A stretch of DNA of 64,000 bases from IMG/VR virus record IMGVR_UViG_3300025929_000012, positions 32,001-96,000 of that record; one strand, 5' to 3'. The position numbers were made by a program, and so were the translations under genes. Positions within the stretch are counted from its first letter, which is position 1. The number at the start of each line of letters is the position of its first letter. The stretch comes from a virus. This document shows, in pieces, positions 25,739 to 59,415 of this stretch. The notes beneath the pieces are model-generated. The model was not told the origin of the DNA and ran no database searches. It saw nothing but the letters and a program-made list of their open reading frames with translations.

Positions 25739-25944
25739 CCGGCGACACGGCGGCGCAGACTGAATCGCGGTCCGTGCCCGCCTTCCTGGTGCGGAACGTG
25801 CAGGAGCTAGCCTTCAGGATCGCGCAGGACCCGTACGCATGGCAGGTGGCCAGCGACCTGCGCAAGCTCGGGCTTGAGGTAGCGCTCCAGGTCCAGCCGC
25901 TCAGAAGCCCCGGCTCCACAGGAAGCGGAGCTGTTTCGCCGTGA
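25735..25944 (+). CDS. Hypothetical protein
   Basis: ATGA overlap. Confidence 0.55.
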   Translation: MTGDTAAQTESRSVPAFLVRNVQELAFRIAQDPYAWQVASDLRKLGLEVALQVQPLRSPGSTGSGAVSP

Positions 25945-26399
25945 ACCGTGACGGCACGGGGTGATGCAGCCGGTAAAGCGCCTTCAGTTCCTCTTCGGAC
26001 AGGCGATGCTGACGCGGGGGGCGGTCGTAGACGGTGACGCCGTCACTAGTCACGCTCGGGTGGCCGGAGGCCCGCAGGTTGGCGTACAAGACCGGAGCCC
26101 TGGTTGCGACCCCGCCCTCTTCGGCAAGGTTCTCCATGCTCTCAGCAAGCGACGCCTCGCCGCCATCCTTAAGCAGCCGGTCAGCGTACGCCTGAAGGTA
26201 GCGGGGGTGGTTGTCTAGCAGCGGCTGGGAGAGGTACAGCGCCTGCCCGCCCCTGGGATGCCTTAGGTCCAGGCCCTCGGGTAAGTGCTGGTAGCGCGCG
26301 TACATCTAAAATCTGGTCGACAACTACACTGCCGACCAGATCGCCGCTACCAACGATTTCCTTCAGGGCATCGATGCGCTCGCCAAAGGTGGAAGCCAT
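25901..26399 (-). CDS. Head-tail joining/tail completion protein, split by a 7-nt and a 6-nt TTA-initiated insert
   Basis: First 30 codons (...GSVVVDQI) in one frame, YARYQH[LP]EGLDLRHPRGGQALYL in another. Confidence 0.75.
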
Positions 26400-28782: not shown

Positions 28783-30087
28783 TCAGGTCAGGGTGGGGAC
28801 GGGCTGGCTAAGGACCGGCTCTGGCGGCAGGAACGGCTTCCATGTGCCCTTGCCGAGCATGAACGCCGTGCCGCACATCGAGTGCTTGCCGCCAACCCCG
28901 TGGTTGCACGCGGCGCACGCTGGCAAGATGTTCGCCCACGCGTCCGTCCCGCCCTTGCACAGCGGGAAGTAGTGCTCAACTTCCTCGGATGGGGCACCGC
29001 AGTAGAAGCACGGGTCCCCGGTCATCTCGATGCACCGGGCCAGCGACAGCAGCCGCTCCAGGTCGGTCAGGCCCTCTTCGGCGCGCATCCGCCGGCGCAT
29101 CCTCGCCGCTGAGCGCAGGCCGGGGTTCTCACGCGCCCAGCGGCGCGCGTTCTCCCGGTGCTCCTCCACGTAGACCGCGCGGTACAGCCGGGCGTATTCG
29201 AGGCGCGCCGCCTGCGTGTCCCGGTAGTACTCGCGGTTGTACTCCTTGCGTGACGGCGACAGGTACCTGTGCTCGCGGCAGAAGCCGATCGCGTTGTCGG
29301 CGTTGATCGTCTTCCCGCATCCGCCCTTGGCGCACTTGCGGGCGTCCGGTGCCCAGTACTCGCCCCGGTGCTCGATGCAGCGGCCGAGGGTATTGGTCGT
29401 CGTCATGCGGTTATCGCAGCCGCCGACCGTGCACTCCGGCAGTTCCAGCGGGATATAGCGGTGCTCCGCAGTGCAGCGGCCGGTCATGTTGTCTGAGCGC
29501 AGCCGGTTGTAGCAGCCCTCCTGCGAGCACTCGGCGCGCTCATCGGGGCGCAGCCTTGTCAGCTCCCGCTGCCTTGCGTTCTCCCGGTCCTTGTACACCC
29601 GCATCAAGGGAGACTCCGCGAAGTGCTCCGGGCAGTAGCCGCACGTGTTGTCCACCCGGAGTTGCCGGTCGCAGCCCCGGGCGCTGGCGCAGAACCGGGC
29701 CGGAGCGCGGGCGGTCGCGTACTTGTGCTCCTCGCAGTACCCGCTCTGGTTGTCGCGCCGGACGGCCTTCCCGCAGTGGGCGCATGCGCCCATGCCCTCG
29801 CCGATGTAGCGGTGCTCCTGGCAGCGGCCGATGCTGTTGTTCCTGCGGAGGGGAGCGCCGCACTCGGTGCAGCCGGGGCGCGCTAGCCGTGCTGCCGCAC
29901 GGTCGGCCTTGCGCTTGGCCAGCTTCCGCAGGTGGGCTTCATGGGCCACGATCGCGGCGCGCACTTCCTGGCAGTCCGGGCAGCGGACCTGCTTAGTGGA
30001 TGCGCGGGCGAATGAGACCTGGCAATCTGCGCACGTGCCCGGCTTGAAGACTCGCGGAGACCTGCGCGCGGGGGTTATATCATGCAT
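28783..30087 (-). CDS. HNH endonuclease with six tandem CxxC...CxxH repeats
   Basis: C-terminal CFYCG...EHYFPLCKGG...NILPACAACN; repeats listed in findings. Confidence 0.9.
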   Translation of the reverse strand: MHDITPARRSPRVFKPGTCADCQVSFARASTKQVRCPDCQEVRAAIVAHEAHLRKLAKRKADRAAARLARPGCTECGAPLRRNNSIGRCQEHRYIGEGMGACAHCGKAVRRDNQSGYCEEHKYATARAPARFCASARGCDRQLRVDNTCGYCPEHFAESPLMRVYKDRENARQRELTRLRPDERAECSQEGCYNRLRSDNMTGRCTAEHRYIPLELPECTVGGCDNRMTTTNTLGRCIEHRGEYWAPDARKCAKGGCGKTINADNAIGFCREHRYLSPSRKEYNREYYRDTQAARLEYARLYRAVYVEEHRENARRWARENPGLRSAARMRRRMRAEEGLTDLERLLSLARCIEMTGDPCFYCGAPSEEVEHYFPLCKGGTDAWANILPACAACNHGVGGKHSMCGTAFMLGKGTWKPFLPPEPVLSQPVPTLT

Positions 30088-30213
30088 GCGTGTTGCACCG
30101 CCGTAATCGGTGTGGCCACGTCCCGGTGCCTGTTAGCGCAGGTGCCGGGACCTTTACGTACACGAGTCTATCAGACTTTCTAAGCCCGATAACCGGCCCA
30201 TGCACGTGTTCGA

Positions 30214-31774: not shown

Positions 31775-33058
31775 CTAGATGCCAGTGCGGCGGCGGAACT
31801 CCGAGACGAGCGCGGCACGGTCCTGCGCGGCCTTCTCCTCCGCCTGGCGCTCCGCGTCCGCGCTGAAGTCCAGGGGGGTGCCGAGCTCGCCGGACAGGTC
31901 CAGCATCCTGACTGTCTGCCCGACCTCCTTCAGTACCTTCCGCACGATCGCCCCGGCGTCGATGGAGGAGCCGTTGGACAGTTCCACGACGTGGCCCTCA
32001 CCTTCGAGGACGGGCCGGGCGAGGTCGGTGATCCTGGGGGGGATGCCGTACTCGCGGGAGTACCAGTCGCGTTCCTTCTCGAACGCGGCACGGTTGAGCG
32101 CCTGGGTGACGCGGGCCAGTTCCAGGGACGTTTCCTCGGCGCGGCTGTTGGCGAGGTCAATCTGCGCCTGCGCCTCAGCGGACAGGGAAGCCCCGGCGGT
32201 GACAGGCTCCCGGTCGCCTTCCTTGTCGCCCCCGGCCCCGCCGTCACCGCTTGTGCCGTCGCCTTCCCCCTCGCCGTCTTCGGGGAGGGAGTCGATGAGC
32301 TCCTGCAGCTGCTCATCAGTCAGCTGGTCATCAGCGCCTTCCCCTGCGGCGGTTTCCCCCCCGGCGGCGAGGACGGCGTTGAACTGGTCGTCGGGGAGGT
32401 CCAGCAGCCGGGCTAGCCGGGCCTCCTGCGCGTCTGTGAGTGCCATGCGGTGTTCCTCCTGCGTGGGAGTGCCGGGTTCGGCTGGCGGCTGTGATGCGGG
32501 CGGGGGCGGCGGCTCAGGGGCCTGCCCTGGCGGGGCGTACTGCTCGGCGGTCAGGTCGAGTACCTCGCCGTCGCCGTCGTTGGCGGCCTCGATCGCCTGC
32601 CACGGGCGCATGCCGGTGATGCGGGGGTCGAGGGTGCCGAGGACGTGCTGGATCGCGGCGGGGAAGAACGCGCCGTCAGCGCGGTGGTAGTCCTCCACGA
32701 TGCGGGCTGAGACGCCGAGCGCCGGGTTCTTCCGCAGCACCTCATCGCCGTCCTCGGTGGCGGCGAGGATCAGGTCGAGGCCGTCGTCGGTGGCCTCGAA
32801 GCCGCGGACCTCGCCGCGGAACCGCTCCGGGTCGTTGGTGTGGGAGTTGTCGCCGGGAGCGAGCTGGAACGGCACCTGGTCGAATGCCCGCGCATTGAAG
32901 GCTTTGGCAAGGCCGGCGAGGTACTCGGGCGTGAACGCGATCTTGCGGCCCTTGTACGAGATCTCGCCGACGGGGAGAATCTGCTTCCGCCACAGGCGGG
33001 ACGCGCCGGACGGGCGGGCCTTCCCCCGGTCTACCGGGGTGAGCATGGTCGTGGTCAC
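31775..33058 (-). CDS. Prohead protease/scaffold (Mu I-like)
   Basis: WRKQILPVG...H..DPE..RG...GVSARI...HVLGTLDPRITGM; acidic coiled-coil C-terminus; GGAGG RBS before GTG 33058. Confidence 0.85.
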   Translation of the reverse strand: MTTTMLTPVDRGKARPSGASRLWRKQILPVGEISYKGRKIAFTPEYLAGLAKAFNARAFDQVPFQLAPGDNSHTNDPERFRGEVRGFEATDDGLDLILAATEDGDEVLRKNPALGVSARIVEDYHRADGAFFPAAIQHVLGTLDPRITGMRPWQAIEAANDGDGEVLDLTAEQYAPPGQAPEPPPPPASQPPAEPGTPTQEEHRMALTDAQEARLARLLDLPDDQFNAVLAAGGETAAGEGADDQLTDEQLQELIDSLPEDGEGEGDGTSGDGGAGGDKEGDREPVTAGASLSAEAQAQIDLANSRAEETSLELARVTQALNRAAFEKERDWYSREYGIPPRITDLARPVLEGEGHVVELSNGSSIDAGAIVRKVLKEVGQTVRMLDLSGELGTPLDFSADAERQAEEKAAQDRAALVSEFRRRTGI

Positions 33059-33159
33059 TGGCCGCCTCCGCTTCTTTTCCGGGTTGCCGTGCTGAGCGGC
33101 CGGGACCGCGCGCAGCCAACCCCCCAGCAACTGCGCGCGGACCGGGCGGCTCAGCCTGC

Positions 33160-33188
33160 TTGCCATCCGTGTCTTTACCGGGTAAAGT
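33160..33188 (+). promoter_or_regulatory. Promoter with operator 2 (CTTTACCGGGTAAAG, 33173-33187)
   Basis: TTGCCA-17bp-TAAAGT; ATG 8 nt downstream. Confidence 0.85.
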
Positions 33189-33196
33189 CTGGCGTC

Positions 33197-33472
33197 ATGA
33201 CTGACATGACCGCCGAGGCCCGTGACGAGTTCGACCCGGTCGGCCTCACCGAGATAGCCACGATGACCGACCCGCCGATGACGCGCCAGCACGCGCTTTG
33301 GGTGATGGGCCAGGAAGGGGCACCGGAGCCGAGGCTGCTGGCGCGGATGAAGGTGTGGCGGCGGTCGGAGGTCGAGCCGTACCTGAAGGAGCATGCCGCC
33401 CGGGTTGCCGCCGGGTGGCGTCCCGTTCCCCGCGACCCCGCGTCGGGGCGGTTCAAGGGGAAGGAGTCGTAA
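33197..33472 (+). CDS. AlpA-like HTH DNA-binding protein (candidate repressor of the operator)
   Basis: VGLTEIA...TRQ...PEP...KVWRRSEVE. Confidence 0.75.
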   Translation: MTDMTAEARDEFDPVGLTEIATMTDPPMTRQHALWVMGQEGAPEPRLLARMKVWRRSEVEPYLKEHAARVAAGWRPVPRDPASGRFKGKES

Positions 33473-33482
33473 GGCCGTCCGC

Positions 33483-33516
33483 TTGCCGTCCTTCACTTTA
33501 CCTGGTAAAGTGAAGG
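33483..33516 (+). promoter_or_regulatory. Promoter with extended operator 3 (27-bp palindrome, 33490-33516)
   Basis: TTGCCG-17bp-TAAAGT; CCTTCACTTTACC-T-GGTAAAGTGAAGG. Confidence 0.85.
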
Positions 33517-33558
33517 TGTAGCGAGGGGAGATGCCCCGCGCGGAGGGGGCAGGAAATC

Positions 33559-35964: not shown

Positions 35965-36530
35965 CCACCACGGCCGACAGCGCGAGCGCCACCTACGCGC
36001 TCGCCAGGAAGGTCGCCGCCGGACTCGGCGGCGGCGCTGCGGCCCGTCCCGGTGAGTACGGGGCTGAGATCACCGACGGCGCGACCCGGCTGCACCTGAC
36101 GATCTCCTGGCATGACCCGAGTCGCCTGGAAGTGTCCGGGGTTTACCCGTCCACGAGGCAGGAGCGCCTCAGGCGGACCAGCATCAGCGTCCGCATCGAC
36201 CGGGGGCCGGCAGTCATCGCCCGCGAGATCCGCTCCCGGCTGCTGCCCGGCTACCACGCCGAGCTCGCCCGGGTTACCGAGCTCAACGCCGGGGAGGCGC
36301 ACGACGCCGGGATGCGGGAGGCGCTGGCCGGGAAGATAACCGGCATGTTCCCCGGCGCGTTCACCCGCGTCACCGGCTACACGGGCCACGGCACTGAGGT
36401 GGTCATCCCCGGCGGCGACGGGCCGGGTGGCACCGTGAGCCTGTCCGGCAGCGGGGCCTCGGTGGCGATGACGTTCCGCTGCGTACCCCCGGAGACGGCG
36501 GTCCGCATGCTGGCGGTCCTCGCCGGGTGA
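35961..36530 (+). CDS. Hypothetical protein (IAREIRSRLLPGY)
   Basis: GTGA overlap; 189 aa. Confidence 0.75.
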   Translation: MTTTADSASATYALARKVAAGLGGGAAARPGEYGAEITDGATRLHLTISWHDPSRLEVSGVYPSTRQERLRRTSISVRIDRGPAVIAREIRSRLLPGYHAELARVTELNAGEAHDAGMREALAGKITGMFPGAFTRVTGYTGHGTEVVIPGGDGPGGTVSLSGSGASVAMTFRCVPPETAVRMLAVLAG

Positions 36531-36550
36531 CCTGAGCGCCCCGGTGAGCG

Positions 36551-36584
36551 GGCCGTCCCCCTTGACCGGGGTGGCGGCCTTTTT
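36551..36584 (+). terminator. Intrinsic terminator
   Basis: GGCCGTCCCCC...GGGGTGGCGGCC followed by TTTTT. Confidence 0.75.
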
Positions 36585-36772
36585 CAGTCCTTCATGAGGG
36601 CGTGGTCGAACGGGACGTCGGCTACCTGCCCGGCGGGGATCGCGGCGACCTCCGCCTCGATCTGCGCGAACAGGGCCCGGTTACGGGTCGTCTGCGGGGC
36701 CCCGGATTCCTCGAACGGCTTCCCCGACGCGGCGGCCATCAGCATCAGGTGGGCTGCCTCGCCGCGCTCCAT
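36584..36772 (-). CDS. Small protein coupled to the zeta toxin gene (candidate antitoxin/immunity)
   Basis: AAGGAG RBS; TGATG overlap; 62 aa. Confidence 0.65.
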   Translation of the reverse strand: MERGEAAHLMLMAAASGKPFEESGAPQTTRNRALFAQIEAEVAAIPAGQVADVPFDHALMKD

Positions 36773-38127
36773 CACTGGTTCTCCTTCGCCAGGAACCGGG
36801 CGTACGCCGCGCGGTCCTTCACTGACCATGCGCCGCCGCGGGGCTTGGCGCCGATCAGGGTGGCGGGGGTGCCCTGGGGGCCGTTGTTGTCGTGGAGCGT
36901 CGCGGAGTCGAACAGGTCACGGGCGATCGCCTGCCGGAACGTGCCGGACACGGCGGCGTGGGTTTCCCGCAGGAACGTCTCCGGGACGGCCCGGCCGGTC
37001 TTCGCTGCGCGGGCCTGCGCCCGCTTCAGTGCCTCGCCCGTGTCGACGGTGACGTACTGGCCGTGGACGTGATAGCCGGCCTTCCGCGCCGCGGTGACCT
37101 TCCCGGCGAGCTTCTCATAGTGGGAGTCACCGGTGCCGTCGAGGGTGAAGTCACGTTTCCCGGCGACCGCCCGGTCCATGATCTTCTTCGCGACCCGCGA
37201 TGACTCCTCATGGACGTACGCGGCGGCGGCCTTGTCCCCGGCGGCCTTCATCGCGGCGTACTCCGGCAGCTGCGCCTTGACGTCGTCCGGGTTGATGACG
37301 ACGCCGCGCATCTTGCCCGTCGCCGACTTCCCCGACGCCGGGCCGCCGCCCATGAACGTCGCCGTCGGGTCCGCGGACCGGGCAGACCCGGCGAGCGCCC
37401 CGGCGATGATCTTCTCGTGGAGGGCCTGCCGTTCGGGGGTGAGCTGCCCGCCCCTGGTGTGCGCGTCGAGGCTGTCGGCGGCGGGGCCGGCCCCGTCGAG
37501 CTTGACCCAGCCGTGCTTGTACCGGTACGGCGCGTGAGCGAGGTTGATCACGTCGCGGTGCCTGCCGCTGAGGGCTGGCTTCCCCGTGAACGCCGGGTTG
37601 GCCATCACCCCGGCCTTGCGCCTCGCGATGCCCTGCGCGGCGGCGAAGGCGCCGGCCTCCTTGAGGAGGGCAGTAATCGGCAGGCCGGCGCGGACCACCG
37701 GCATCCCCGCCGGGACCTTCGCGCCGCCCTCGGAGTCGGCGAGGACCCTGCCCGCCCAGGTGTGGTGCCCGTCAAGGACCCGGTTGTCGGAGCTGATGAT
37801 GACCGGCTTGGTGTCGGTGCCGGCCTTGACGGAATCAGCGATGCCCCGTATCGCGGCCGTGTCCCCGGTCGCCTGCGTCGGGCGCAGCGACCTGGCGGGC
37901 ACCCTGGCGGAGGTGACCGTGATCCCCTTGGCCTGCAAGTGCGCGATGAACTTCGGCATGAGCGCTTTCGACGGCACGTACTGCCCGTTCACGGTGCCGG
38001 AAAGCTGGGGCATGTCGCCGCGGTCGATGCCGAGGTTCCCGTGGTAGGTGACCGTGCCCCCGGACGGGACCCCGATGAGCCGCCAGCCGTGCGTGTACCG
38101 CTGCGGGGCGCCGGCCAGGTCGATCAC
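36772..38127 (-). CDS. ParB-like nuclease plus zeta-toxin (P-loop kinase) fusion
   Basis: RGDMPQL...LRPTQ...VIISSDNRVLDGHHTW; GGGPASGKS, INPDDVK, VHEESS, LDGT, TGRAVP. Confidence 0.85.
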   Translation of the reverse strand: MIDLAGAPQRYTHGWRLIGVPSGGTVTYHGNLGIDRGDMPQLSGTVNGQYVPSKALMPKFIAHLQAKGITVTSARVPARSLRPTQATGDTAAIRGIADSVKAGTDTKPVIISSDNRVLDGHHTWAGRVLADSEGGAKVPAGMPVVRAGLPITALLKEAGAFAAAQGIARRKAGVMANPAFTGKPALSGRHRDVINLAHAPYRYKHGWVKLDGAGPAADSLDAHTRGGQLTPERQALHEKIIAGALAGSARSADPTATFMGGGPASGKSATGKMRGVVINPDDVKAQLPEYAAMKAAGDKAAAAYVHEESSRVAKKIMDRAVAGKRDFTLDGTGDSHYEKLAGKVTAARKAGYHVHGQYVTVDTGEALKRAQARAAKTGRAVPETFLRETHAAVSGTFRQAIARDLFDSATLHDNNGPQGTPATLIGAKPRGGAWSVKDRAAYARFLAKENQ

Positions 38128-38168
38128 CTGGAGCAGTTCACCCCACCGGGCCGGGCTGAGGCCGCCGC

Positions 38169-39005
38169 CTACGCCGCCGCTGAGGCTTTTGGGCCTGCCG
38201 CCTTCCCGTGCATCGCCGCTGCCCGCTTCGCCATCGCCATCGCCACGGCTGGCTTCATCCCCTTGGCGAGCAGTTTCCGGTAGATGGCCGCCACGTCAGG
38301 TGACAGCCCCCCGGCTGGCTTGGCTGTCGCCGCTGGCTTCCCGGTGCCCATCGTGGTGACCCGCGGGCCGTCCACCGACGTGGCGGCCGACGTGAACGGC
38401 AGCGCCCCCGCGAGGTCCACTGCCCCGTCCTGCTCGCCTGCGTACGACGCCGTGCCATCCTGCTGAGCCGCCGGGAAGCCCCGCGCCCGCTTGTTGTGAT
38501 GGTCGATCAGCCCCGCCAGGGCGCCCTGCTGCGACCCGGACGCCCCGGTGGGAGTCCCGTCAGCGTGCTTCCCGGCGTAACCGCGCCCCTTCGCGGTGAT
38601 GACGCCGATCTTCATGCCGCTGCTCTTATGCTGAGCGGTGATCATCCCCGGAGCCGAACGGGACAACTGGACGTCAGCCGGGCCGCGGACCACCGGCATG
38701 CGTCTGGTCATGGTGGCCAAGCTGATCGCCTCCGTGTCGTTATTCGCGCCCTGGAAAGGCCATGTCCCCTTCACCCCGGGCGCGTTAGTGGCTTTGAGCT
38801 GCCTCGCCCGCTTGCGGATCAGCCGGGCCAGCGCCGGGCGCTTAGGCGCGGGCGCACGTCCCACAGACCGGATAGCGCGCTTGAGGTAGTCCAGGTTCGG
38901 GACCGGGAAAGCCGGCGGCTGGCCGTCAGCAGCGGGGAGCGCCTGTCCCTTCGCGGCGAGTTTCTTCCGGGACGCGGCGCGCTGAACTGGCGGGGTCTTG
39001 ACCAT
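38169..39005 (-). CDS. Basic putative internal head protein
   Basis: FPVPNLDYLKRAIRSVGRA...LIRKRARQL, as in prohead-associated proteins; GAGAGGA RBS. Confidence 0.75.
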   Translation of the reverse strand: MVKTPPVQRAASRKKLAAKGQALPAADGQPPAFPVPNLDYLKRAIRSVGRAPAPKRPALARLIRKRARQLKATNAPGVKGTWPFQGANNDTEAISLATMTRRMPVVRGPADVQLSRSAPGMITAQHKSSGMKIGVITAKGRGYAGKHADGTPTGASGSQQGALAGLIDHHNKRARGFPAAQQDGTASYAGEQDGAVDLAGALPFTSAATSVDGPRVTTMGTGKPAATAKPAGGLSPDVAAIYRKLLAKGMKPAVAMAMAKRAAAMHGKAAGPKASAAA

Positions 39006-39039
39006 GCAGCTTCCTCTCGCGAGCGCTACGCTGGCCCGA

Positions 39040-39148
39040 TGAAAGGGCGGGACGTACTAGTCCCCGCCGCCCGGAGAGCTAAAGCCGGTCAGTGTGATCC
39101 CGGGCAGGAGCGCGAGGGCCGGGCCAGGCGCGCTCTCCCGCCCTTTCA
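39040..39148 (-). promoter_or_regulatory. Mutually exclusive terminator/antiterminator RNA structure
   Basis: Perfect 13-bp inverted repeat 39040-52/39136-48 competing with a local hairpin at 39046-68. Confidence 0.55.
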
Positions 39149-40648
39149 CTTCGCCGTAACCAGCAGGTCATTCGCCTGCCACTCAAAACCGGGAGGGCAC
39201 AGGATCGTCGCCCGCACCCGGGTGCGCTGCGCAGGCCCCATGCTGTTGATCACCTCAGCAGTCCGTTCCGGGGTGTCATGGCGGGTGAACTGCGGCGGGC
39301 GGGGAGTGAACTGGCCGCCTTCCCGCACCCCCGGGGGGACGCGCTCAGCGGGGGCGATGAGGCGGCGGACCTCTGGGGCGGGCACCGTGAGGGCGTCAGC
39401 GATGGCGAGGTCGAGGAACCGGCCGCCGTCCCCGCTGAGCCTGATGGCGTTCGCTTGCCTGTCCAGTGCCCCGGCCTGCGCCCGCAGCGCCTTCGCCTTG
39501 CCTGTGAGGGCCGCCACCGTGGCCCGGTTCCGCGCCAGCGTCCGCCGCGGTGCCCCCGCGGAGGACTTGGTTGCCGCGTTCCCGGCCTTCCTCGGGGCCG
39601 CCTTCGCCAGCGCCGCCGTAGCCTTCGCCGCCGCCGTCGGGGCCACCTTCCTGGCCGCCTTGGCCGCTGCCGTGGCCTTCACCTGCGCCGCGATAACCTT
39701 CTGAATGCCGGCGATCTGCTGGTCGATGCCCGCTGCCTTCACCCGGTCGGCGTTCGCCTGGGCGTGGAGGGCATCCTTCCGCGCCCTGGGCGCCAGCGGG
39801 GCCGACGCTTTCGGCGTGCCCGGCTTCGGGGTACCCGGCTTGACGGCTGCCGTCTTCGGCGTGGTCGGCTTCGCCTTGGCGGGAGTTGTTCCCGTGCCTC
39901 CCGCCGGCTTAGCGGTGCCGACTGCCTTCGCCTTCGGCTTCGCGGCGGCCTTCTTCTTCACGGGCGCGTCCGGGAGCGGGTGCGCCGCGATCGCCGCAGC
40001 AGCCGCCGCCTCCGTCGCCGCCGCAGTCCCCGGCTTCGGCTTCCCCTTCGGCGCGTTCAGTGCCTTCAGCAGCCCCGCCAGCTCCTGCCGCTGCGCCGGG
40101 GTCGCCTTACCTGTCGCCACCAGGTGCTGCAGGTGGGCAATGTGGGCCATGTGCAGGGCATGCTGCTGCGCGGCTGTCTTGCCTGCCGTGCCGCCCGAGT
40201 TCGTGCCCTTCCCCGACGTGGTCCCGAACTGGCCGCCGGCCGGTGAACCTGCCGGGACATGAGGCGGCACGTAGCCGAGGTCGATGGACTGCCCGTTCCA
40301 GGTGAGCGCGATCACGGCACCGCCCTCGTTCGCATGGGCGTGGGCGACAGCGGACTTCGCGGCGAGGTCAGCCAGCGCCGCCTGAGCCGCCGCGACAACC
40401 TCAGGGTGGGCCTTCCCGCCGCCCCGCGCCCACCTGCGGATAGCGCCCCAGGTGATCGCGTACGCCACGGCGGGCGGGTGACCGGAGCGGATGAGAGCAT
40501 CCCTGACGTGCTGAAAGTACGGCAGTTATGGAGGCAGCTCCATCCCCTTCACGTGGTAAAGGCCGGGACCGCCCGGTTTCCCCGCCGGGGCTGGCGTCAC
40601 TGCCAGCCGCGCGGTATCCGCGGACATCTCGATTGGTGCTGCGCTCAC
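39146..40648 (-). CDS. Ala/Lys-rich putative internal head protein with in-frame TAA at codon 41
   Basis: GTG 40648 with GGGGGTGA RBS is in frame with ORF 39146-40468; TAA at 40526-40528. Confidence 0.7.
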
Positions 40649-40667
40649 TTGCCGATCACCCCCAGCC

Positions 40668-41111
40668 CTAGTTCGATCGACGGGCATGCATGACGTCCCA
40701 CGGGCCTGTGGCGGTCTTCGCGGTGCCTACCCATGCGGTCACCGGGCGGCCGAGCGCGATGCTCGCCAGTGCGCGGCTGTGGCCGTCCACGAGGCGGAGG
40801 AGCCTCGTGCCGGGCCGCCGGATCGCGACGACCGGCTTCCTGGCCCCCGCCCTGAGTGAGCTGACCATGGAAGCCACCTTGAGGCGGTCCTTCGCGGCCA
40901 GCGCCCAGTTCGGGTCGTTGTCGCGGTCTAGCTGCCGGGCCGGGACCATGACGGGTTGCGCCCGCCATTGGACCTCGTCAACCCAGCCGAGGGAACCGGG
41001 CGGGTAGTCGCGGGCGAGCTGGATCTTCACCTCTTGCGCCACGGTCAGCTTCTGCGGCGTGGCGAGGGGGGCGTGGGCGTCGGAGACGGGCTGGACGGAC
41101 GGAACGGCCAC
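40668..41111 (-). CDS. ParB/Srx N-terminal-like protein
   Basis: KPVVAI...LVDGHSRALA. Confidence 0.8.
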   Translation of the reverse strand: MAVPSVQPVSDAHAPLATPQKLTVAQEVKIQLARDYPPGSLGWVDEVQWRAQPVMVPARQLDRDNDPNWALAAKDRLKVASMVSSLRAGARKPVVAIRRPGTRLLRLVDGHSRALASIALGRPVTAWVGTAKTATGPWDVMHARRSN

Positions 41112-41143
41112 CGGTCACCGCCGTCGCCTTGTACCTTATCGGT

Positions 41144-42007
41144 GTGACCGACAGTGAGCACACCACTACGAAGCTGGCGCGGGCCCTGGAAGCCATCCCC
41201 GGGGTGCCCGAGGACATGATCGAGAAGGCCAGGACCGGGCACTACCATGACTACCTGTCGCCTCTTGACTTCCCCGAGATGCAACTCTTCGCCGACCTGC
41301 GGAACCTGGCCGGGCGGCGCACGATGCCCCCGGCATCCCGGCGGATGCTCCTGAACCTCGCCAAGGACGTCATCAACGGCAAGCACGGCGCCAGCAAAGA
41401 GGAATCCGAAGAGTGGGCCCGCTCCCCGGACGGGCAGGAGACGATGGCGCTCCTCACCGGGCAAGCACCCGGGGACGCCCCCGGCGAGGCCGGCCCCGGG
41501 ATCTGGATCAAGTCCACGCGCGGTCCCGACGATGAGCCTGCCTGCGAGGTCACCTGGGGGCCGCTGCAGTGCTACGCCCCGGTTGCCGACGTCCGCGACA
41601 CGGCGATCGACCTGGTCACCTGCGCCGCCTACGCGGAGATGATGATGACCCTCATCGTGCGAGTGGACCTCTCAGCTGCGATCGTGTCCCAGTTCGCCAC
41701 GGAACTGCTCGCCGGGCGGGACAAGCGCTACTTCGGGGCGAAGACCACGATGACGCTGCTGCCCGCCGGGTCATCGAAACGGCGGCAGGCCCTCGTGCTG
41801 CTGAAACGGGGGTCGCTGGAAGGCGCGCTCAGCCCGGATGAGGCACGGGCGATGGCGCTGGCCTGGCTGGAGGTCGCGGAGGCCACCGAATCCGACCAGC
41901 TCGTCAGCGAGGCCCTCCGCGGGACAGGCGTCCCCGGTGACGCGCAGGACAGGCTGTTCGGCTACCTGCGGCACCTGCGGAAGCAGCCGGAAGGCCAGTC
42001 GCGGTGA
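41144..42007 (+). CDS. Hypothetical protein
   Basis: TACCTT 6 nt before GTG; MIEKARTGHYHDYLS. Confidence 0.8.
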   Translation: MTDSEHTTTKLARALEAIPGVPEDMIEKARTGHYHDYLSPLDFPEMQLFADLRNLAGRRTMPPASRRMLLNLAKDVINGKHGASKEESEEWARSPDGQETMALLTGQAPGDAPGEAGPGIWIKSTRGPDDEPACEVTWGPLQCYAPVADVRDTAIDLVTCAAYAEMMMTLIVRVDLSAAIVSQFATELLAGRDKRYFGAKTTMTLLPAGSSKRRQALVLLKRGSLEGALSPDEARAMALAWLEVAEATESDQLVSEALRGTGVPGDAQDRLFGYLRHLRKQPEGQSR

Positions 42008-42594
42008 GCGCGCCGCCACGTGACGTTTTCGCCGCTGCCGCCCGGCTGGCCATCGAACGGCATGACGAGTGGGACGCCCCGCACGCCTTCGAGACGCTCC
42101 ACTGGGACGGGGTCAAGCTCACGACGATGACCTACGCGTGCATCATGCCCGACGTTGACCCGCCGGACTACCCGAAGCTGATGGCCAGGCTCGCGCGGGA
42201 GGAACTGGAGAAGCACCCGGACGATCCCGCCTACGGGTACCTGGTTCAGGCCGAAGGGTTCAAGGTGGTGACGCCGGCACCGGGGACCAGGGAGGCGGAG
42301 GCGTTCGACTGGGAGCAGTATCACCGGGACCGCCTCGGAAGGACGTTCCACAAGCGCCCGGATGCCGTTGAGACATGCACCGCGTGGGCCGCCGACATTC
42401 ACGGCCGGCTGTGGTGGGCGGAGAAGGCCCGCGGCGTGGAGGGCGTCCGGGAAGCATTCTTCGGGCCGGACGGCACCTCATCGGGCCAGATGCGGCGCAT
42501 GGGCGGACCGTGGCCGGAGGCGCTGCTGGCCGTCGCCTACGCTACCGGCATGACCGCGTGGGGGCTGCCGGGGCCGCAAGGGCGGATGAACTGA
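42004..42594 (+). CDS. Hypothetical protein
   Basis: GTGA overlap; EWDAPH...AADIHGRLW. Confidence 0.75.
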   Translation: MSAPPRDVFAAAARLAIERHDEWDAPHAFETLHWDGVKLTTMTYACIMPDVDPPDYPKLMARLAREELEKHPDDPAYGYLVQAEGFKVVTPAPGTREAEAFDWEQYHRDRLGRTFHKRPDAVETCTAWAADIHGRLWWAEKARGVEGVREAFFGPDGTSSGQMRRMGGPWPEALLAVAYATGMTAWGLPGPQGRMN

Positions 42595-42596
42595 CC

Positions 42597-43154
42597 ATGG
42601 GCGCGGCACGGGGGCGGCTGCTCCGCGCGGGACTGGCGGTGATCCTCGCCGGGTTCGCGTGCGGGGTCGCGTCGGCAACCCTGTCGTTCGCGTGGGCGTA
42701 CACCAGGGCAGGCGGCCTCTCTGAGGCGTCATGGTGGCTGACGTGGCTCGCCCGGGGGTGCTTCGCCATCGCGGTGGCGTGCGCGGTCCTGCAGCGGCGG
42801 CTGCGGGCACAGGAGGCCAGGATGCTGCACGATACCCGGCCGCGCCCCGACTACGCTGCCATCGCCGCGATGGAGACCGAGATCTGGGGGCACCCGTTCC
42901 ATCACGCGGGAGCGCCGTGGCGCTGTGAATGGCCTGCCTGGTGCGGGCCGGGCCGGGAAGCCGACGCGGCGGAGGCCCTCAAGGCGCGGGGCATCCTGGT
43001 TACCCGGGTCACCGGTCACCCTGCCATCCCGGACGGGGAAGTGGTCCTGGTGAACCCTGACAGCGGCTACCAGCCCGGCTACGGCAGCACCTCGGCGCCC
43101 TTAAACGGGGCAATGGCACGGCACCTGCAGTTGGGATGCGCGGACCCGGGGTAG
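42597..43154 (+). CDS. Membrane protein (2 TM; RPDYAAIAAME motif)
   Basis: Hydrophobic N-terminus; 3' end overlaps MuF gene. Confidence 0.6.
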   Translation: MGAARGRLLRAGLAVILAGFACGVASATLSFAWAYTRAGGLSEASWWLTWLARGCFAIAVACAVLQRRLRAQEARMLHDTRPRPDYAAIAAMETEIWGHPFHHAGAPWRCEWPAWCGPGREADAAEALKARGILVTRVTGHPAIPDGEVVLVNPDSGYQPGYGSTSAPLNGAMARHLQLGCADPG

Positions 43155-43744
43155 GCAGGGTGGCCTTCGACGACAGGCGGATGGTCAGCCCTGAAGTTCT
43201 TCCCGCTGGCAGCAGCGCAGCCCGGCGAGCACCTCGGGTCAAGCTTGGCCTGCCAGCCCAGGAGGTTGCCGTGCTTCGCGGCCATCCCGTCGACCGCCGC
43301 CGCCGCCGCAACTCGCTGCGCCGAGGCTTCCACGTGGAGGCCGAGGTAGCGCTTCTCCGTGGCCAGCGCGTCCCTGATCGCGGTCATGGCCGGCTGATCC
43401 TTCGACCGTGCCGCCTTGACCGCCTGCTGAACCCGCCTCGCTGCGGCCAGGAAAAACTGCGCCTTCCGGAGAAGGTTCTGCCGCGCGGCGAATCGTGACG
43501 CCGGCCCGGCGCCCTTCACGGCCTCACCCGGCCCGGAGGAGAACAGGGCGGCCACGGCGGACAGGACGGCGGCGGAGATCCCCGCCGCCTTAAAGGGTGC
43601 CCGTAGCGCCGCGCTGAGCGCCTTCACGGTCCCGTAGGCGGCGAGGGCAGCGACGATCAGGGCAATGAGGTGATCATCGGGAGACGGCGGGGGCTGCTGG
43701 CCCGGTGCGGGCTGCTGCTGCGGGGCTTGCGGGGCGGGCGGCAC
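43079..43744 (-). CDS. MuF-like minor head protein
   Basis: GWQAKLDPRCSPGC...PGSAHPNCRC. Confidence 0.9.
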   Translation of the reverse strand: MPPAPQAPQQQPAPGQQPPPSPDDHLIALIVAALAAYGTVKALSAALRAPFKAAGISAAVLSAVAALFSSGPGEAVKGAGPASRFAARQNLLRKAQFFLAAARRVQQAVKAARSKDQPAMTAIRDALATEKRYLGLHVEASAQRVAAAAAVDGMAAKHGNLLGWQAKLDPRCSPGCAAASGKNFRADHPPVVEGHPAYPGSAHPNCRCRAIAPFKGAEVLP

Positions 43745-43747
43745 GGC

Positions 43748-43909
43748 TCACCTCACGCCCCTGGGCCTCCGCAAGTCATCCCCGGCCAGCGCCACGCCGT
43801 CAGTGCAGATCAGCACCGGCCACCCGGAGGAGGTCACCCCGACCGCCATCTCATGATCATCAGGCAGGTCTGTCGCCTTCACGCCGCACGCCGGGCAGGT
43901 CACCGCCAC
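43748..43909 (-). CDS. Small Zn-ribbon protein
   Basis: MAVTCPACG...H...C; AGGGG RBS. Confidence 0.55.
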   Translation of the reverse strand: MAVTCPACGVKATDLPDDHEMAVGVTSSGWPVLICTDGVALAGDDLRRPRGVR

Positions 43910-43918
43910 GGCGACCCC

Positions 43919-44194
43919 CTACGCTTTTGGATCGCCGTGGGCAGGCACGCGCCAGAGTGCGTCGGGTGCGGTATCCAGCACCTCGGCCAGCGCGATCAGC
44001 TCATCGGCCTGCACGTAGCGTTCGCAGCGTTCAACGGCTCCCACGGTCTGCGGGTGCCAGTTGCCGTAGCCGAGGTGCCGCATGCCGTCCGCTACCTGTT
44101 TCTGGGACAGTCGCCGCCGGGCCCGCTCGGCGCGGATGTTCGCCGCTATGGACAGGCGCACGCTTACATAGCGACCTGCACCGGTATCAGCCAT
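43919..44194 (-). CDS. XRE-family HTH regulator (leaderless)
   Basis: NIRAERARRRLSQKQVA...TVGAVERCER; TAAAAT 6 nt before ATG. Confidence 0.9.
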   Translation of the reverse strand: MADTGAGRYVSVRLSIAANIRAERARRRLSQKQVADGMRHLGYGNWHPQTVGAVERCERYVQADELIALAEVLDTAPDALWRVPAHGDPKA

Positions 44195-44418: not shown

Positions 44419-45948
44419 CTAAGCCTTCGGTATCCCGAGGGTGGGCATCCCGAACGGCTCGGCGATGTTCTCCGGCAGCGGCTCACGGCCCGCCTGGGCG
44501 AGGGCCTGCTGCGCCACCCGGGTAGCAGCCGCCGTCCCCCCCGCCAGCCGCCCCAGTGACGCCGCTGCTTCCTTCGGCATCCCCGGCGGCGCCGTCGCCA
44601 CCACGTGGGCCTCCCGGTCCCTAGCGCCCTGCTGCACGATCTGCGACACCGCGTCCACGTCCAGGTTCAAGACCGTCGCCAGCCGTTCCGTGATCAGGTC
44701 GAGGATCGCGGGCGGCACCTGCAGCGACGGGGCAACGGCCAGCTCCTGGAACAGGCCCACCAGCTGGGATGACGACTCGTCGGTGAGCGCCCCGAACTTG
44801 AACACCGGGTAGGCGGCGGACGGCCCGAAGTTCAATGTGACTAGCGGCGCTATCACGTCATGGGTGAGGGACTCGGCGATCTCCGCCGAGATGGCCTGCC
44901 GGGACTTCAGGAAGAACGCGCTCTGGTCCTGGGACAAGGCGAGGCTGCCCTTGCCCATGGACGCGAGGCTGGACAGCCCCGTGAAGCCTGCGAGAACCGA
45001 TGCGGTCTGCCACGTCTCCAGGAACGCGAGCGCATCGGCAAATTGTGAGGCGCCTTTCCCTGAGCTTTCGAGCACCTCGAAGTCTTTTGCGCCCTGCGGG
45101 CCTCTTGTGAATCCCGCCACCCCGGAAGCCCGCATTGAGGCGACGTCATCAGCTCGCGCATTGGCCTCACGCTGATCCTGGCCGTACACGATCACTTTAG
45201 GCAACGACTGTTGCTCAAGGAACGCCAGCCACAAAAAGACCAACTTTAGCTTCGTTTTGTAACACCAGTAACAGACCGCTAGCTCGGACGTGCCGGTTAG
45301 CGGCTCACGGTGCCGGCCATTTACGTGGACGAACGAGCGCACCTTCGGGATGTCCACCCAGCCCGGCGTGGACCCCGGTCTCGTGCTCAGCGCCTGGCCG
45401 CCGAGCAGGAACAACTGCTGGCGGAAGCCCATCTCAGCGGCCGTCTTCGGATCGCGGCGCAGCTCGCACGTGGCGGTCGGGCGGTGCGCGAGCTTCTCGT
45501 AGGTGACCGCGCCGTCTTCCTCGCGAATCCGGAAAATCTTTTCGTGAAAGGATTTTCTATAGATTTGCGCTGACGTGACTTGCCCGATGACATCCTGCAG
45601 CGGCGTCTTCATGCCGCCGGACGTGGCGGGGGCGAACAGCGCGGAGTTGCAAAGCTCTGCCTCGCCGCTGTCGCCCTTGGACGGCTCGATCGCCCGCGAT
45701 GCCTGCCTGATGGGCAGGGTCAGGACGGCCTCAAGCGCAGACGCCTGGCCGTCCTGGTCAAGCATCTTCGCAACGTCACGACTTGACCACTCTCCGTAGT
45801 CGAGTACCGAGCCGTCACCGAACGTGGAGAACATGCGGGTCATGGAGTCGTACTGAGTCCCGAGTTCCCCGCCGAGGATCTGGTTGCGAGTCGCGGGCTT
45901 CAGGTCGGGGAACTTGACGATGCGCGCCGTCTGCGGGTCGGGAGCCAC
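44419..45948 (-). CDS. Portal protein (DUF935/Mu gp29-like)
   Basis: 509 aa after TerL; GSLALSQDQS...IAPLVTLNFG. Confidence 0.9.
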   Translation of the reverse strand: MAPDPQTARIVKFPDLKPATRNQILGGELGTQYDSMTRMFSTFGDGSVLDYGEWSSRDVAKMLDQDGQASALEAVLTLPIRQASRAIEPSKGDSGEAELCNSALFAPATSGGMKTPLQDVIGQVTSAQIYRKSFHEKIFRIREEDGAVTYEKLAHRPTATCELRRDPKTAAEMGFRQQLFLLGGQALSTRPGSTPGWVDIPKVRSFVHVNGRHREPLTGTSELAVCYWCYKTKLKLVFLWLAFLEQQSLPKVIVYGQDQREANARADDVASMRASGVAGFTRGPQGAKDFEVLESSGKGASQFADALAFLETWQTASVLAGFTGLSSLASMGKGSLALSQDQSAFFLKSRQAISAEIAESLTHDVIAPLVTLNFGPSAAYPVFKFGALTDESSSQLVGLFQELAVAPSLQVPPAILDLITERLATVLNLDVDAVSQIVQQGARDREAHVVATAPPGMPKEAAASLGRLAGGTAAATRVAQQALAQAGREPLPENIAEPFGMPTLGIPKA

Positions 45949-45978
45949 GAGCGCCCCCCGTCGCTACGCTGGGGTTTC

Positions 45979-46493: not shown

Positions 46494-48194
46494 TCACCTC
46501 CACGTGCGGACGTTGGGCCGGTCGGGGCGGCCGTCGTCGTCCTGCGGCGCCCACGCGTCCGGGGAATCCCACCCGTCCCGCCTGTCCCGGTCATCCGGAC
46601 CACCGGGACGGCGACGCGACCTGTCCTCCGTCAGCCGCTCCAAGTCGGTGTGCGCCGCCCACTGCCTCGCCGACGGAGAATGAGGCAGTGAACGCGGCCA
46701 GTAGCTCTGAACGCAGGCGTCACCGTCGTCCGTGCTGCGGCCAAGCCGCTTCTCGATCTCGTCCTTGGACTCCACCGCGATCTTGCCCCCGGAGGTGACC
46801 GTCCACTGAGGGGCCGACAGGTCGCCGAGCAGCATCTCGTCGTCGGGGAGGCACAGGTCCGAGCCCGCCGACGGGTCAAGCTGTTCCCTGAGGCCCCACC
46901 AGGCCGCGCTGCGGGTGCAGTTGAAACCGAGGGTGCCTGTGCTGTCCATGCGATCCGTGCGGTTCGACGCGCCGAACGCCTCCACCTTGCAGCCCTGCTC
47001 ATGCAGCCGGTCGTACACGCCGCCGCCGACGCCGACCACGTCAATGACCGCGGTGCGGGCCGGGTCCGCGTCGAGAACAGCCTTTACCTTGCCCGCGGTG
47101 ACCATCGTGCTTTCCTTGGCCGTCTTCCGCAGCTCCACCAGCACCGGGCCGTTGCGGACCGCGATTACCGTCTTCGCGGTCCCGTACCTGGCGACGTCCA
47201 CGCCCGCCGTGCGCGGGTAGTCCATGTCGGTGCCCGGCCTGCCCGCGAGGTCCCACTCATGCCAGCGCTCAACCGCCGCCTCGGCCCACGCCAGGGGGAT
47301 GACCGAGTCCTCATCGCCGGCGTGGAACTCGCCCAGCACCCGGTTCTGGTAGATGCTCGAATCGGGGCCCCACTGGAGCGCACGCTGGGCGGCCCATGCC
47401 GGGTCGATCTGCCCCGCCGCTATCGCCTGGTCGAGGGTTATGTGGACGGCGTGCCAGTCCTCGTAGCCGGGCTTGCGGGACTGGATGTCATAGAAGCGGC
47501 CAGACGGCGCACCGGGCGTTGACAGGGCCAGCGCGAACGCTTCCCCGGTGCCGTTCAGCGCGCCCTCGCAGGCGTCGAACGTGCCCGCCGGGATCGCCTT
47601 AGCCTCATCGAAGACGAACAGGAGGCTGTCAGCGTGCGCGCCCTCAATGAGGGCCGAGTTGGCGGACGCGCTGGCGAACGCCGCGCCGTGGTTGAGGCGC
47701 AGGTTCAGGTTCATCAGCTCATTGGGGCTGAACGGGTGGCCGCGAAGGCGGACGTTGAGCTCCTCGTGGGCGGTCAGCCGGTCACCGCGGACCTTGTCCC
47801 AGCGGACCCGGACGGCCCAGCGGTGGATCTCCCTCCACAGGAACTTGGAGATCTGATGCCATGACCCGGCGGTGGTCGCGACCTTCCAGTCCACCCCGGC
47901 GGCCTCGCGGGTCAGCGCGAACCACAAGACTGTTATCGCGGACAGCGCCGACTTGCCTGCGCCGTGCGGCGAGCGGACGCATACCCGCTTAGCGGCAGGC
48001 AGGCCGCCGATGATCTCCCGCTGGTAGGCGGTGAGGCTCTTGCCGCGCCAGTCGATGCAGTCCTCGGCGAACGCTACCGGGTCGTTGTAGTACCGCTGCG
48101 ACGCCGCTGCCTGGCTGGCCGCTGCCTGCCGCTGAAGGTCACGGAGGTAGCGGAGACGGTCAGGCGGTGCCTGTACCAGCCGGGTCGTTGGCAC
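46494..48194 (-). CDS. terL: Terminase large subunit
   Basis: Walker A SPHGAGKS, Walker B FVFDEA, STP, nuclease GVDVARYG, RSTDDGDA. Confidence 0.95.
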   Translation of the reverse strand: MPTTRLVQAPPDRLRYLRDLQRQAAASQAAASQRYYNDPVAFAEDCIDWRGKSLTAYQREIIGGLPAAKRVCVRSPHGAGKSALSAITVLWFALTREAAGVDWKVATTAGSWHQISKFLWREIHRWAVRVRWDKVRGDRLTAHEELNVRLRGHPFSPNELMNLNLRLNHGAAFASASANSALIEGAHADSLLFVFDEAKAIPAGTFDACEGALNGTGEAFALALSTPGAPSGRFYDIQSRKPGYEDWHAVHITLDQAIAAGQIDPAWAAQRALQWGPDSSIYQNRVLGEFHAGDEDSVIPLAWAEAAVERWHEWDLAGRPGTDMDYPRTAGVDVARYGTAKTVIAVRNGPVLVELRKTAKESTMVTAGKVKAVLDADPARTAVIDVVGVGGGVYDRLHEQGCKVEAFGASNRTDRMDSTGTLGFNCTRSAAWWGLREQLDPSAGSDLCLPDDEMLLGDLSAPQWTVTSGGKIAVESKDEIEKRLGRSTDDGDACVQSYWPRSLPHSPSARQWAAHTDLERLTEDRSRRRPGGPDDRDRRDGWDSPDAWAPQDDDGRPDRPNVRTWR

Positions 48195-57867: not shown

Positions 57868-58367
57868 CGGGGGTCCTCCTGTCCGGGTCGCCGGGCCAGC
57901 GCCCGGAACGTCGCGGTGACCGGGGCGAGCGGCGCCCACCCGGCCGGGTTGAGCTTCCGGGGCTCCCGGAACCACGGGTCGGGCTGCTCGCCGCGCTCGA
58001 CCGCGGCGGCCAGCGCGTCGATCACGTGGACCGTCGCCCAGCACCAGGCGGCGGCGTAGTGCCAGTTACGGCGGCTGGCAGGACGAAACACGCTGGTCAG
58101 GTACTCCACGGCGCGGGCCAGGGCCATGAACGGGTCAGTCTCCGCGTTGACCCTCGCGACGCCGGGAGCCCCCCGCCGGCCCCTTCCCTGCAATACCACT
58201 GCCGGGGAAGGGGTATAATCACGCGCCGGCGACGCATGCCTGCCCGTCGGGCGAGGCCACGGCCCCCCTTCGAGGGCACCCGGGCCCACGGGGGAGGGGC
58301 GTTCGGGGCGGCCCCGCGGGCCCGGCCCGGTAACGTTCTGGTCACGGATCTCTCGCATGCCGGTCAC
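57864..58367 (-). CDS. Hypothetical protein
   Basis: GTGA/ATGA overlaps. Confidence 0.6.
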   Translation of the reverse strand: MTGMREIRDQNVTGPGPRGRPERPSPVGPGALEGGPWPRPTGRHASPARDYTPSPAVVLQGRGRRGAPGVARVNAETDPFMALARAVEYLTSVFRPASRRNWHYAAAWCWATVHVIDALAAAVERGEQPDPWFREPRKLNPAGWAPLAPVTATFRALARRPGQEDPR

Positions 58368-59263: not shown

Positions 59264-59415
59264 GGCCGTTTCCTTTTCTTCCGGGGGGCCTAGGGGGAAA
59301 TCGGGGATTAGTCAATCTCAATCGCGGGCATGGTGCGGGGCCTTTCCCGCAGGCGCGGCAGGCGGCCTTCCCTCGCGGCCTGCCGCGCCCTGACGGGGAG
59401 GTGTCCCAAGGGGAC

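Follow-up and report, generated by a model that had tools for sequence, protein, structure and literature searches.

The DNA analysed here, hereafter the window, is a stretch of 64,000 nucleotides (nt) comprising bases 32001-96000 of the 110,328-bp IMG/VR virus record IMGVR_UViG_3300025929_000012, the genome of an actinophage. A gene on its minus strand is broken by a 9-nt block that begins with an in-frame TAA and is inserted exactly at a junction that is continuous in the homologues. Other blocks are found at the same codon in relatives, and short gaps led by TTA or AGA interrupt a second, connector-like gene of the same phage group. We favour, with a probability of about 0.55, the reading that the segment 40648-39146 (-) is a single gene of 497 codons, whose translation would proceed by a short programmed hop of the ribosome from CCA to CCG over the 9-nt block.

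An interrupted gene and its uninterrupted relatives

On the minus strand, GTG 40648-40646 opens a frame of 40 codons that ends with ATG GAG CTG CCT CCA (40543-40529). The CCA codon is followed by TAA (40528-40526), CTG (40525-40523), CCG (40522-40520) and TAC (40519-40517). A reading of this DNA from the sequence alone (the sequence-only reading) had already described this layout, with the TAA inside a 9-nt insert, and its account of the codons is accurate. It had estimated that the same frame continues for some 460 codons past the TAA, and we counted 459, up to TGA 39148-39146. The start that it had proposed at GTG 40648, with a good ribosome-binding site, is supported by GGGGGTGA at 40663-40656 and by the relatives L016, P0009, P0022 and P0054 (P numbers denote proteins and L numbers DNA loci), which begin at the equivalent position with VSAQTARL or MSAQTARL. 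It had also remarked that the list of open reading frames (ORFs) hides the gene by starting at 40468, and the mechanical list does start at GTG 40468. The features of the gene are as follows.

40656..40663 (-): Shine-Dalgarno (SD)-like GGGGGTGA, whose G-run ends 10 nt before the start codon
40529..40648 (-): coding part 1, GTG and 39 codons, MSAAPIEMSADTARL...GLYHVKGMELPP, with homology to the N-terminal region of relatives that lack the interruption
40538..40549 (-): internal SD-like purine run AAGGGGATGGAG, codons K-G-M-E
40529..40531 (-): CCA, the second Pro codon, after CCT; proposed take-off codon
40526..40528 (-): in-frame TAA, followed by C; proposed slow A-site codon
40523..40525 (-): spacer CTG inside the gap, not found in homologues
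40520..40522 (-): CCG, synonymous with the take-off codon; proposed landing codon
39146..40519 (-): coding part 2, 457 codons from TAC (Tyr), stop TGA 39148-39146
40466..40468 (-): GTG at which the mechanical ORF call restarts, without an SD-like sequence before it

The downstream part of the gene is matched by 52 proteins. Complete N-termini read ...LSA.TARLA.TPAPAGKPGGPGLYHV.GM.LPPYFQHVRDALIRSGH... in one frame, and at least 15 homologues read ...GM(E/S/Q/A)LPPYFQHVR... straight through. Both halves are found in one frame, with L-P-P-Y adjacent, in proteins P0003, P0004, P0008, P0009, P0021, P0022, P0024, P0033-P0036 and P0054, and at the DNA level in loci L009, L010/L014, L012, L015 and L016. 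As L-P-P-Y adjoin in the homologues, the window is exactly 9 nt longer at the LPP/Tyr junction. An alignment across LPPY had been suggested as a check, and the homologues do not begin downstream of the stop. A Pro-to-Pro hop had been predicted to yield MELPPYFQHVR, and the uninterrupted homologue P0008 reads exactly GMELPPYFQHVR.

A survey of IMG/VR by the KPGGPGL motif yielded about 80 family members, all of them uninterrupted at the junction. Of 87 distinct uninterrupted relatives, 86 have a GPGL-to-Tyr spacing of 10 residues, the exception being P0050, a row that the script left unassigned and whose spacing is 10 by eye. Judging from this alignment, three to four extra residues at that place would be unprecedented. 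The M(Q/E)LPPYF starts of P0012, P0013, P0017, P0018 and P0030 were considered as further breaks and rejected: their cluster mate P0054 has a full N-terminus, so they reflect start-calling choices. Scans of genome contigs gave no relative, and neither blastn against phages and plasmids nor tblastn of P0004 against isolated phages gave a match.

A stop codon followed by C after Pro-Pro makes a poor termination context. In the proposed mechanism, the ribosome would arrive at CCT CCA with TAA-C in the A site, where release would be slow. Both Pro codons before the stop are rare (CCT, then CCA or CCT in the gapped alleles), the codon census of the phage giving, per thousand, 4.5 for CCT, 5.6 for CCA and 34 for CCG. 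The peptidyl-tRNA-Pro would then unpair from CCA, the mRNA would slide by 9 nt, the tRNA would re-pair with CCG and decoding would resume at TAC. The product would contain ...GMELPPYFQHVR..., with a spacing identical to that of the uninterrupted homologues, and the ribosomes that terminate would release a 40-residue peptide. The gap might thus act as a throttle that keeps the protein at low copy. That translation crosses the gap, how efficiently it does so and for what purpose are points that we infer.

Gapped alleles at the same codon

L013, a metagenome contig of 1,083 nt, reads ATG ATG CTG CCT CCT TGA CGC GAA GCT T TAC TTC GAG. Its gap, CTG CCT CCT [TGACGCGAAGCTT] TAC, has 13 nt, with TGA-C right after L-P-P, and puts the downstream frame at +1, in which YFENIRDALIRSGH... 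continues past the gap. The downstream ORF is intact to its natural stop, with 172 codons free of other lesions, and is followed by the syntenic next gene. Synonymous differences between L013 and the window are near saturation (pS, the proportion of synonymous differences, is about 0.5). From its sequence, the L013 gene would be dead without recoding.

A third gap is suggested by protein P0010, which begins with MSRTWSCLLDDPYFQNV and whose N-terminal stretch reads ..WSCLLDDPYFQNV. Its WSCLLDDP segment back-translates as the +1 reading of ATG GAG CTG CCT CCT TGA YGA YCC N TAY. The gap would then have about 10 nt, with TGA-C right after L-P-P and with CCN before the Tyr codon. The blocks at this one codon would therefore have 9, about 10 (from back-translation) and 13 nt, one being in frame and two at +1, and all resume at the same Tyr. 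All three stops come after CTG CCT CCW (Pro-Pro) and precede a C, as read in the window and L013 and as deduced for P0010. The triplets before the resume codon, set against the take-off tRNA, are CCG for CCA in the window, CCN for CCT in P0010 and CTT for CCT in L013. Upstream of the gap, window and L013 are most alike (42 of 51 nt), and the first 60 nt downstream of the L013 gap are 92% identical to the gap-free L015. Such mosaic-looking flanks would fit either the spread of a gap-bearing segment by recombination or gaps of independent origin. Pattern scans of IMG/VR revealed no further gapped alleles, and relatives with gapped connector genes (see below) carry uninterrupted, more distant versions of the gapped-gene module.

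As these gaps lie in different frames, neither readthrough nor any one frameshift suits all of them. The sequence-only reading had left the choice between a stop-hop and readthrough open; the first part has gained support and the second has not. Readthrough of the TAA would give ...LPP-X-L-P-YFQ..., three residues longer, and would suit the in-frame gap of the window and the generally recognised weakness of TAA-C after Pro-Pro as a termination context. It is nevertheless improbable, and a hop is favoured over it, because the blocks of L013 and, by back-translation, P0010 are out of frame, 86 of 87 relatives keep the same GPGL-Tyr spacing, a suppressor tRNA is lacking from the genome and TAA terminates other genes of this phage as an ordinary stop.

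Another possibility is a +1 frameshift at CCU-UGA for the relatives, together with a different event for the window, which would mean separate mechanisms without bypassing. In its favour, the 10- and 13-nt gaps each amount to +1, and UGA-C with an upstream SD-like run resembles the prfB site. However, a frameshift would add three to four residues where spacing is invariant, and it would leave unexplained the in-frame 9-nt gap of the window as well as the +2 gaps (8 and 11 nt) of the connector-like gene described below. Furthermore, a slip of tRNA-Pro from CCU to CUU involves the same weak pairing as the hop needs. We regard this explanation as very improbable.

Alternatively, the gene might be split, with a 40-residue peptide and a separate downstream protein made by re-initiation at GTG 40468 or CTG 40525. 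Gene callers do start the ORF at GTG 40468 (P0001, P0002 and P0005), and post-termination ribosomes are reported to be able to slide and re-initiate nearby (PMC11194080). However, neither an SD-like sequence nor a promoter-like site precedes GTG 40468, and a start there would drop a conserved helix and the conserved YFQHVRDALIRSGHPPA segment. In L013, the first in-frame ATG, GTG or TTG is reached only after 36 codons of the downstream part, by which point the invariant TWGAIRRWA.GGG block has been passed. A collection of 5.8 billion proteins holds no small N-terminal protein ending at LPP, although such small ORFs are simply not called. A split gene is thus quite improbable.

An assembly or sequencing artefact has to be considered for a metagenome-assembled virus genome. 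The truncated ORF was, however, recovered both from the Joint Genome Institute (JGI; two contigs) and from an independent Logan assembly, in which P0055 is identical to the 440-amino-acid (aa) ORF of the window and is truncated at the same start, which makes a one-off error of assembly unlikely. P0002 and P0005, the latter on 49 contigs, start at (V/M)AYAITWG like the ORF call of the window. As the truncated-start ORF recurs in this way (P0005 on 49 contigs, P0002 and P0055), the interruption appears to be reproducible and not rare. In addition, a different gap occurs at the same codon in L013, an unrelated metagenome contig, and a 9-nt block is not a typical sequencing error. An artefact is therefore highly improbable.

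Gaps in a connector-like gene and genomic context

A second gapped gene, connector-like, is found in the same genome at 25901..26399 (-). From ATG 26399, 30 codons end in ATT; TTAGATG follows at 26309-26303, and the YARYQH...RHPRGGQALYL part resumes at TAC 26302. An in-frame TTACCC (26284-26279) sits where relatives read QHE. We compared this gene with 13 IMG/VR relatives (L111-L123), and they bear out that the 30 N-terminal residues are part of the same protein. Seven of them (L116, L117 and L119-L123) are uninterrupted and read ...VDQ(I/V)YA.YQHEGLD.RHPRGG... in one frame, and the other six have gaps led by TTA or AGA at two positions of the gene, at about 1440-1560 in each locus. The gaps are the following, with the block in brackets.

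Window: ATT[TTAGATG]TAC, 7 nt
Window: in-frame TTACCC, 6 nt
L111: GTA[AGACCCACCGGTC]TAC, 13 nt
L112: GTA[AGACCCCGGTC]TAT, 11 nt
L113: CAT[TTAC]GAG, 4 nt
L114: CAG[TTACCCGG]CAT, 8 nt
L115: CAA[TTATCCGA]CAT, 8 nt
L118: CAG[TTACGCGG]CAT, 8 nt

The connector gaps fall in every frame, they begin with the rarest codons (0.3 per thousand for TTA and 1.0 for AGA), and their last triplet is one that suits the take-off tRNA. Wherever a gap requires bypassing, the triplet 5' of the resume codon can pair with the take-off tRNA through Watson-Crick or G.U pairs at positions 1 and 2. The joint chance of landing compatibility for seven lineage-independent gaps is about 4e-6, a rough figure as the gap boundaries were set by homology. 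AGA as the leading codon does not occur among the published Streptomyces-phage cases considered here (PMC10732093).

A genome-wide scan for TTA based on GC content at third codon positions (GC3) suffered from confounding by antisense frames. Among the 6,293 codons of 11 long genes, only two in-frame TTA codons were found, at 33472-33510 (-), and both fall in the initial 30 codons of the open frame 31778-33556. Either the true start of that frame may come after them, or they may be regulatory. At least eight TTACCC hexamers cluster at 58653-58780 (+), reading GGGTAA on the strand of gene 58364-59311; this cluster is probably a repeat in a structural protein.

The main rival to a hop is that the 9-nt insertion has simply inactivated a dispensable accessory module, the intact downstream frame indicating a recent event. 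Several observations speak for this rival or otherwise count against the hop. The closest protein relatives of the window (P0003, P0004 and P0008) are uninterrupted, and they are identical to it around the site and over the first 60 residues past the gap. Ratios of non-synonymous to synonymous change (dN/dS) are low, at 0.07-0.25 pairwise for the first 36 codons of part 2 and at 0.09-0.16 between the two gapped alleles, window and L013, in segments that only recoding would bring into translation, and the latter figures count in favour of the hop. The 9-nt insert may, however, be recent, in which case they say little, as they reflect the history before the insertion. Relatives have gained, lost and fused domains, so that the module set is highly mosaic; the gapped module itself is accessory and is often shuffled or deleted, and its loss could be tolerated. 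The gapped alleles seen as DNA are those of the window and L013 only, P0010 being known by back-translation, and the landing triplet CTT of L013 pairs only via a middle G.U. Unlike an unread UUA, a stop recruits release factors, and the efficiency of a hop could be very low. ATGGAG of the AAGGGGATGGAG run can pair with CTCCAT (40533-40528) to form a 6-bp hairpin, and the predicted hairpins put the take-off codons in the 3' arm, paired with the SD-like K-G-M codons, but those of the window (6 bp, z 0.14) and L013 (9 bp) are no stabler than shuffled sequences (z about 0), so that the window hairpin is suggestive at most.

Inactivation, on the other hand, does not readily account for three different blocks at the exact same codon, each with a stop and C after CTG CCT CCW and each ending in a tRNA-Pro-compatible triplet. 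Nor are there other lesions in the 459 codons of the window or in the 172 codons of L013. The truncated-start allele recurs on many contigs, and the same phage group keeps connector genes that are gapped but otherwise conserved. On balance we consider inactivation unlikely, if by far the most serious of the alternatives, and retain the programmed hop. It is tempting to go further and to propose a natural, selected in-frame stop-hop, in an uncultivated actinophage group that tolerates, and perhaps exploits, gaps of 4-13 nt led by UUA, AGA, UAA or UGA in several virion genes, the stop-led one being a constitutive throttle and not a bldA-dependent switch. We put this broader proposal forward tentatively, as somewhat short of an even chance.

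The phage genome, of about 110 kb, has a GC content of 70.7%, and its terminase is about 50% identical to those of the nearest isolated phages, Streptomyces phage TurkishDelight and Actinoplanes phage phiAsp2. The sole tRNA gene of the genome is a tRNA-Ser(GCT) at C1:20984-21076, outside the window; no tRNA-Leu(UAA), tRNA-Pro or suppressor tRNA was found in the 110 kb. The genes surrounding the gapped gene are these.

46494-48194 (-): large terminase, upstream of the gapped gene
44419-45963 (-): portal, upstream
43079-43747 (-): MuF-like, upstream
40668..41111 (-): ParB-like module gene, 147 aa, just upstream; its ORF ends with TAG 40670-40668, just before the SD-like sequence of the gapped gene
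38169-39005 (-): 278-aa module gene, downstream
36772-38127 (-): ParB-like and zeta-toxin protein (Pfam Zeta_toxin, 3.3e-26; PHROG 16619, minor head protein, 2.3e-41)

The flanking ORFs, when scanned with Pfam and PHROGs, gave ParB-like, zeta and MuF proteins and unknowns, and no HNH, GIY-YIG or LAGLIDADG; the nearest HNH ORF is at 28783-30132, about 10 kb from the gap. Rfam gave nothing over 36000-44000. Two co-oriented plus-strand ORFs (292 and 196 aa, 41129-42594) break up the head operon of the minus strand, lying between its MuF-like and its ParB-like gene, and neither has a Pfam or PHROG match.

MuF-linked polyvalent or minor-head protein module sets are a concept reportedly owed to Iyer et al. 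in 2017. The present set sits after the portal and MuF genes and is combined with zeta-toxin and ParB-like modules that are fused in relatives, which fits a set of that type. Thus, P0034 and P0045 are fusions of ParB-like, 2H phosphoesterase and gapped-gene modules; the ParB-like module is likewise joined to the gapped-gene module in P0033 and P0047; P0003 fuses the 2H phosphoesterase and the gapped-gene module without the ParB-like part; in P0035 and P0038 the gapped-gene module, or its C-terminal part, is joined to the 278-aa module; and P0040 is another fused form involving downstream module genes. Because the pieces are fused in such varied combinations, the gapped gene is, as one module, part of a MuF-linked set of genes for minor-head or ejected proteins. 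As for the function of this module, Pfam, PHROGs and the ESM Atlas gave no match, and the AlphaFold model of P0004 is poor (mean pLDDT, the predicted local distance difference test, 49.8).

The module borders show features of their own. In P0008, about 20 first residues of the ParB-like protein (cf. 40668-41111) are joined straight to the gapped-gene module, which appears to illustrate mosaicism by deletion and fusion. A short motif, (A/V)(I/V)(D/E)L(A/S), precedes each module in 36772-41111 (-) and in relatives P0015, P0029 and P0038. Examples are AVDLAG, VINLAH, MIDLAG, AISLAT and RFLDLAI, and fused forms carry it at their joints too. Perhaps it delimits domains or serves as a protease site.

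Comparison with known systems

Few natural examples of short-distance translational bypassing are available, and for Streptomyces phages the case is built on three terminase genes, of which two are prophage-borne (PMC10732093). Streptomyces phage phiHau3 has a terminase gene with two 10-nt blocks led by UUA, and the StrepC.1 and S. catenulae prophages have 7-nt blocks (PMC10732093). Antonov et al. (2023, RNA Biol; PMC10732093) credit the proposal of UUA-led short bypassing to Smith et al. (their ref. 45). For phiHau3, the full-length product was observed in Streptomyces; in Escherichia coli, recoding of the cassette occurred only with UUA changed to UAA, and the junction peptide was sequenced (PMC10732093).

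The phiHau3 record (L110) reads GGC[TTA CTCC GGT]AAG and TCT[TTA ACGG TCC]ACG, and its layout is shared by CCA[TAA CTG CCG]TAC of the window: a take-off codon, a slow codon, a few nt, a synonymous landing codon (GGC to GGT and TCT to TCC there, CCA to CCG here) and resumption. Both cases belong to actinomycete phages, and in both a short block (7-10 nt there, 9 nt in the window) is absent from counterparts in which the flanks are adjacent. Bypassing of the phiHau3 type has an internal SD-like sequence and an mRNA stem-loop as 5' stimulators; just upstream of its gap the window has a purine-rich SD-like run as a possible counterpart, besides the predicted hairpin, and a K-G pair occurs in the nascent peptide of both. 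The argument from spacing that Antonov et al. made for the phiHau3 terminase is the one that we applied to the GPGL-Tyr spacing.

What differs is that the present block is stop-led and in frame, and that it lies in another gene. The phiHau3-type blocks start with UUA, the rare, bldA-dependent Leu codon, whereas those of the window and L013 start with TAA and TGA; a UUA-led gap, of 7 nt, is nevertheless present in this genome, in the connector-like gene. The E. coli assay of phiHau3 needed a UAA, which the window has naturally; as slow A-site codons, UUA and UAA are described as interchangeable in that assay (PMC10732093). As the slow codon here is a true stop, the logic of a host-growth-phase sensor proposed for phiHau3 does not carry over, and release factors would compete. 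The phiHau3-type blocks, of 10 or 7 nt, disrupt the frame, unlike the 9-nt block of the window, L013 having 13 nt and a +1 shift. Finally, the phiHau3 gene encodes a terminase and the window gene a minor-head or ejected-protein module.

If the broader proposal holds, the hop would be the first natural stop-led case, and short bypassing would extend from three terminase genes to a lineage-wide decoding habit. The locus would be a natural cassette with UAA in place of UUA. Gaps of different length and frame at one codon provide comparative evidence that separates bypassing from readthrough and frameshifting. The UUA- and AGA-led gaps of a second virion gene of the phage group, in at least seven genomes, offer natural variants for the rules on slow codons, hop length and landing mismatches. 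Gene callers split or truncate such genes, as with the start called at 40468, and phage annotations and protein databases therefore misreport them.

In-frame stop-hopping has been described in synthetic E. coli constructs by Weiss et al. (1987), as summarised in a review (PMC5009743). That review, of 2016, reports it in synthetic constructs only and states that in nature 'no occurences are known' (PMC5009743). As in the window, matched codons flank an in-frame stop, the peptidyl-tRNA re-pairs downstream and the product is shorter than that of readthrough. The synthetic hop skips 6 nt, so that 9 nt specify one residue, whereas the window has an extra CTG between the stop and the landing codon and would skip 9 nt.

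The bypass of T4 gene 60 is similar in that a stop comes right after the codon of take-off, which the landing codon matches, in that two ORFs yield one protein and in that the gap is an insert relative to homologues. In contrast, its gap is 50 nt long, as against 9 nt in the window, and it relies on a strong signal from the nascent peptide and on a take-off stem-loop in which the stop lies. The T4 gap is also linked to the mobA homing-endonuclease cassette, and no homing nuclease is encoded by the genes flanking the gap in the window. The byps of Magnusiomyces mitochondria are 27-55 nt long. They are alike in that several short inserts per genome occur in different genes, vary in length and fall in any frame, and are tolerated by bypassing at an unused or slow codon in the A site (cited in PMC5009743 and PMC10732093). 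They are, however, mitochondrial and repeat-like, whereas the gaps of the phage group of the window have 4-13 nt and share no sequence beyond the slow codon. Lastly, a +1 frameshift of the prfB type restores the frame by a one-nt slip before UGA, whereas the two halves of the window gene are already in the same frame.

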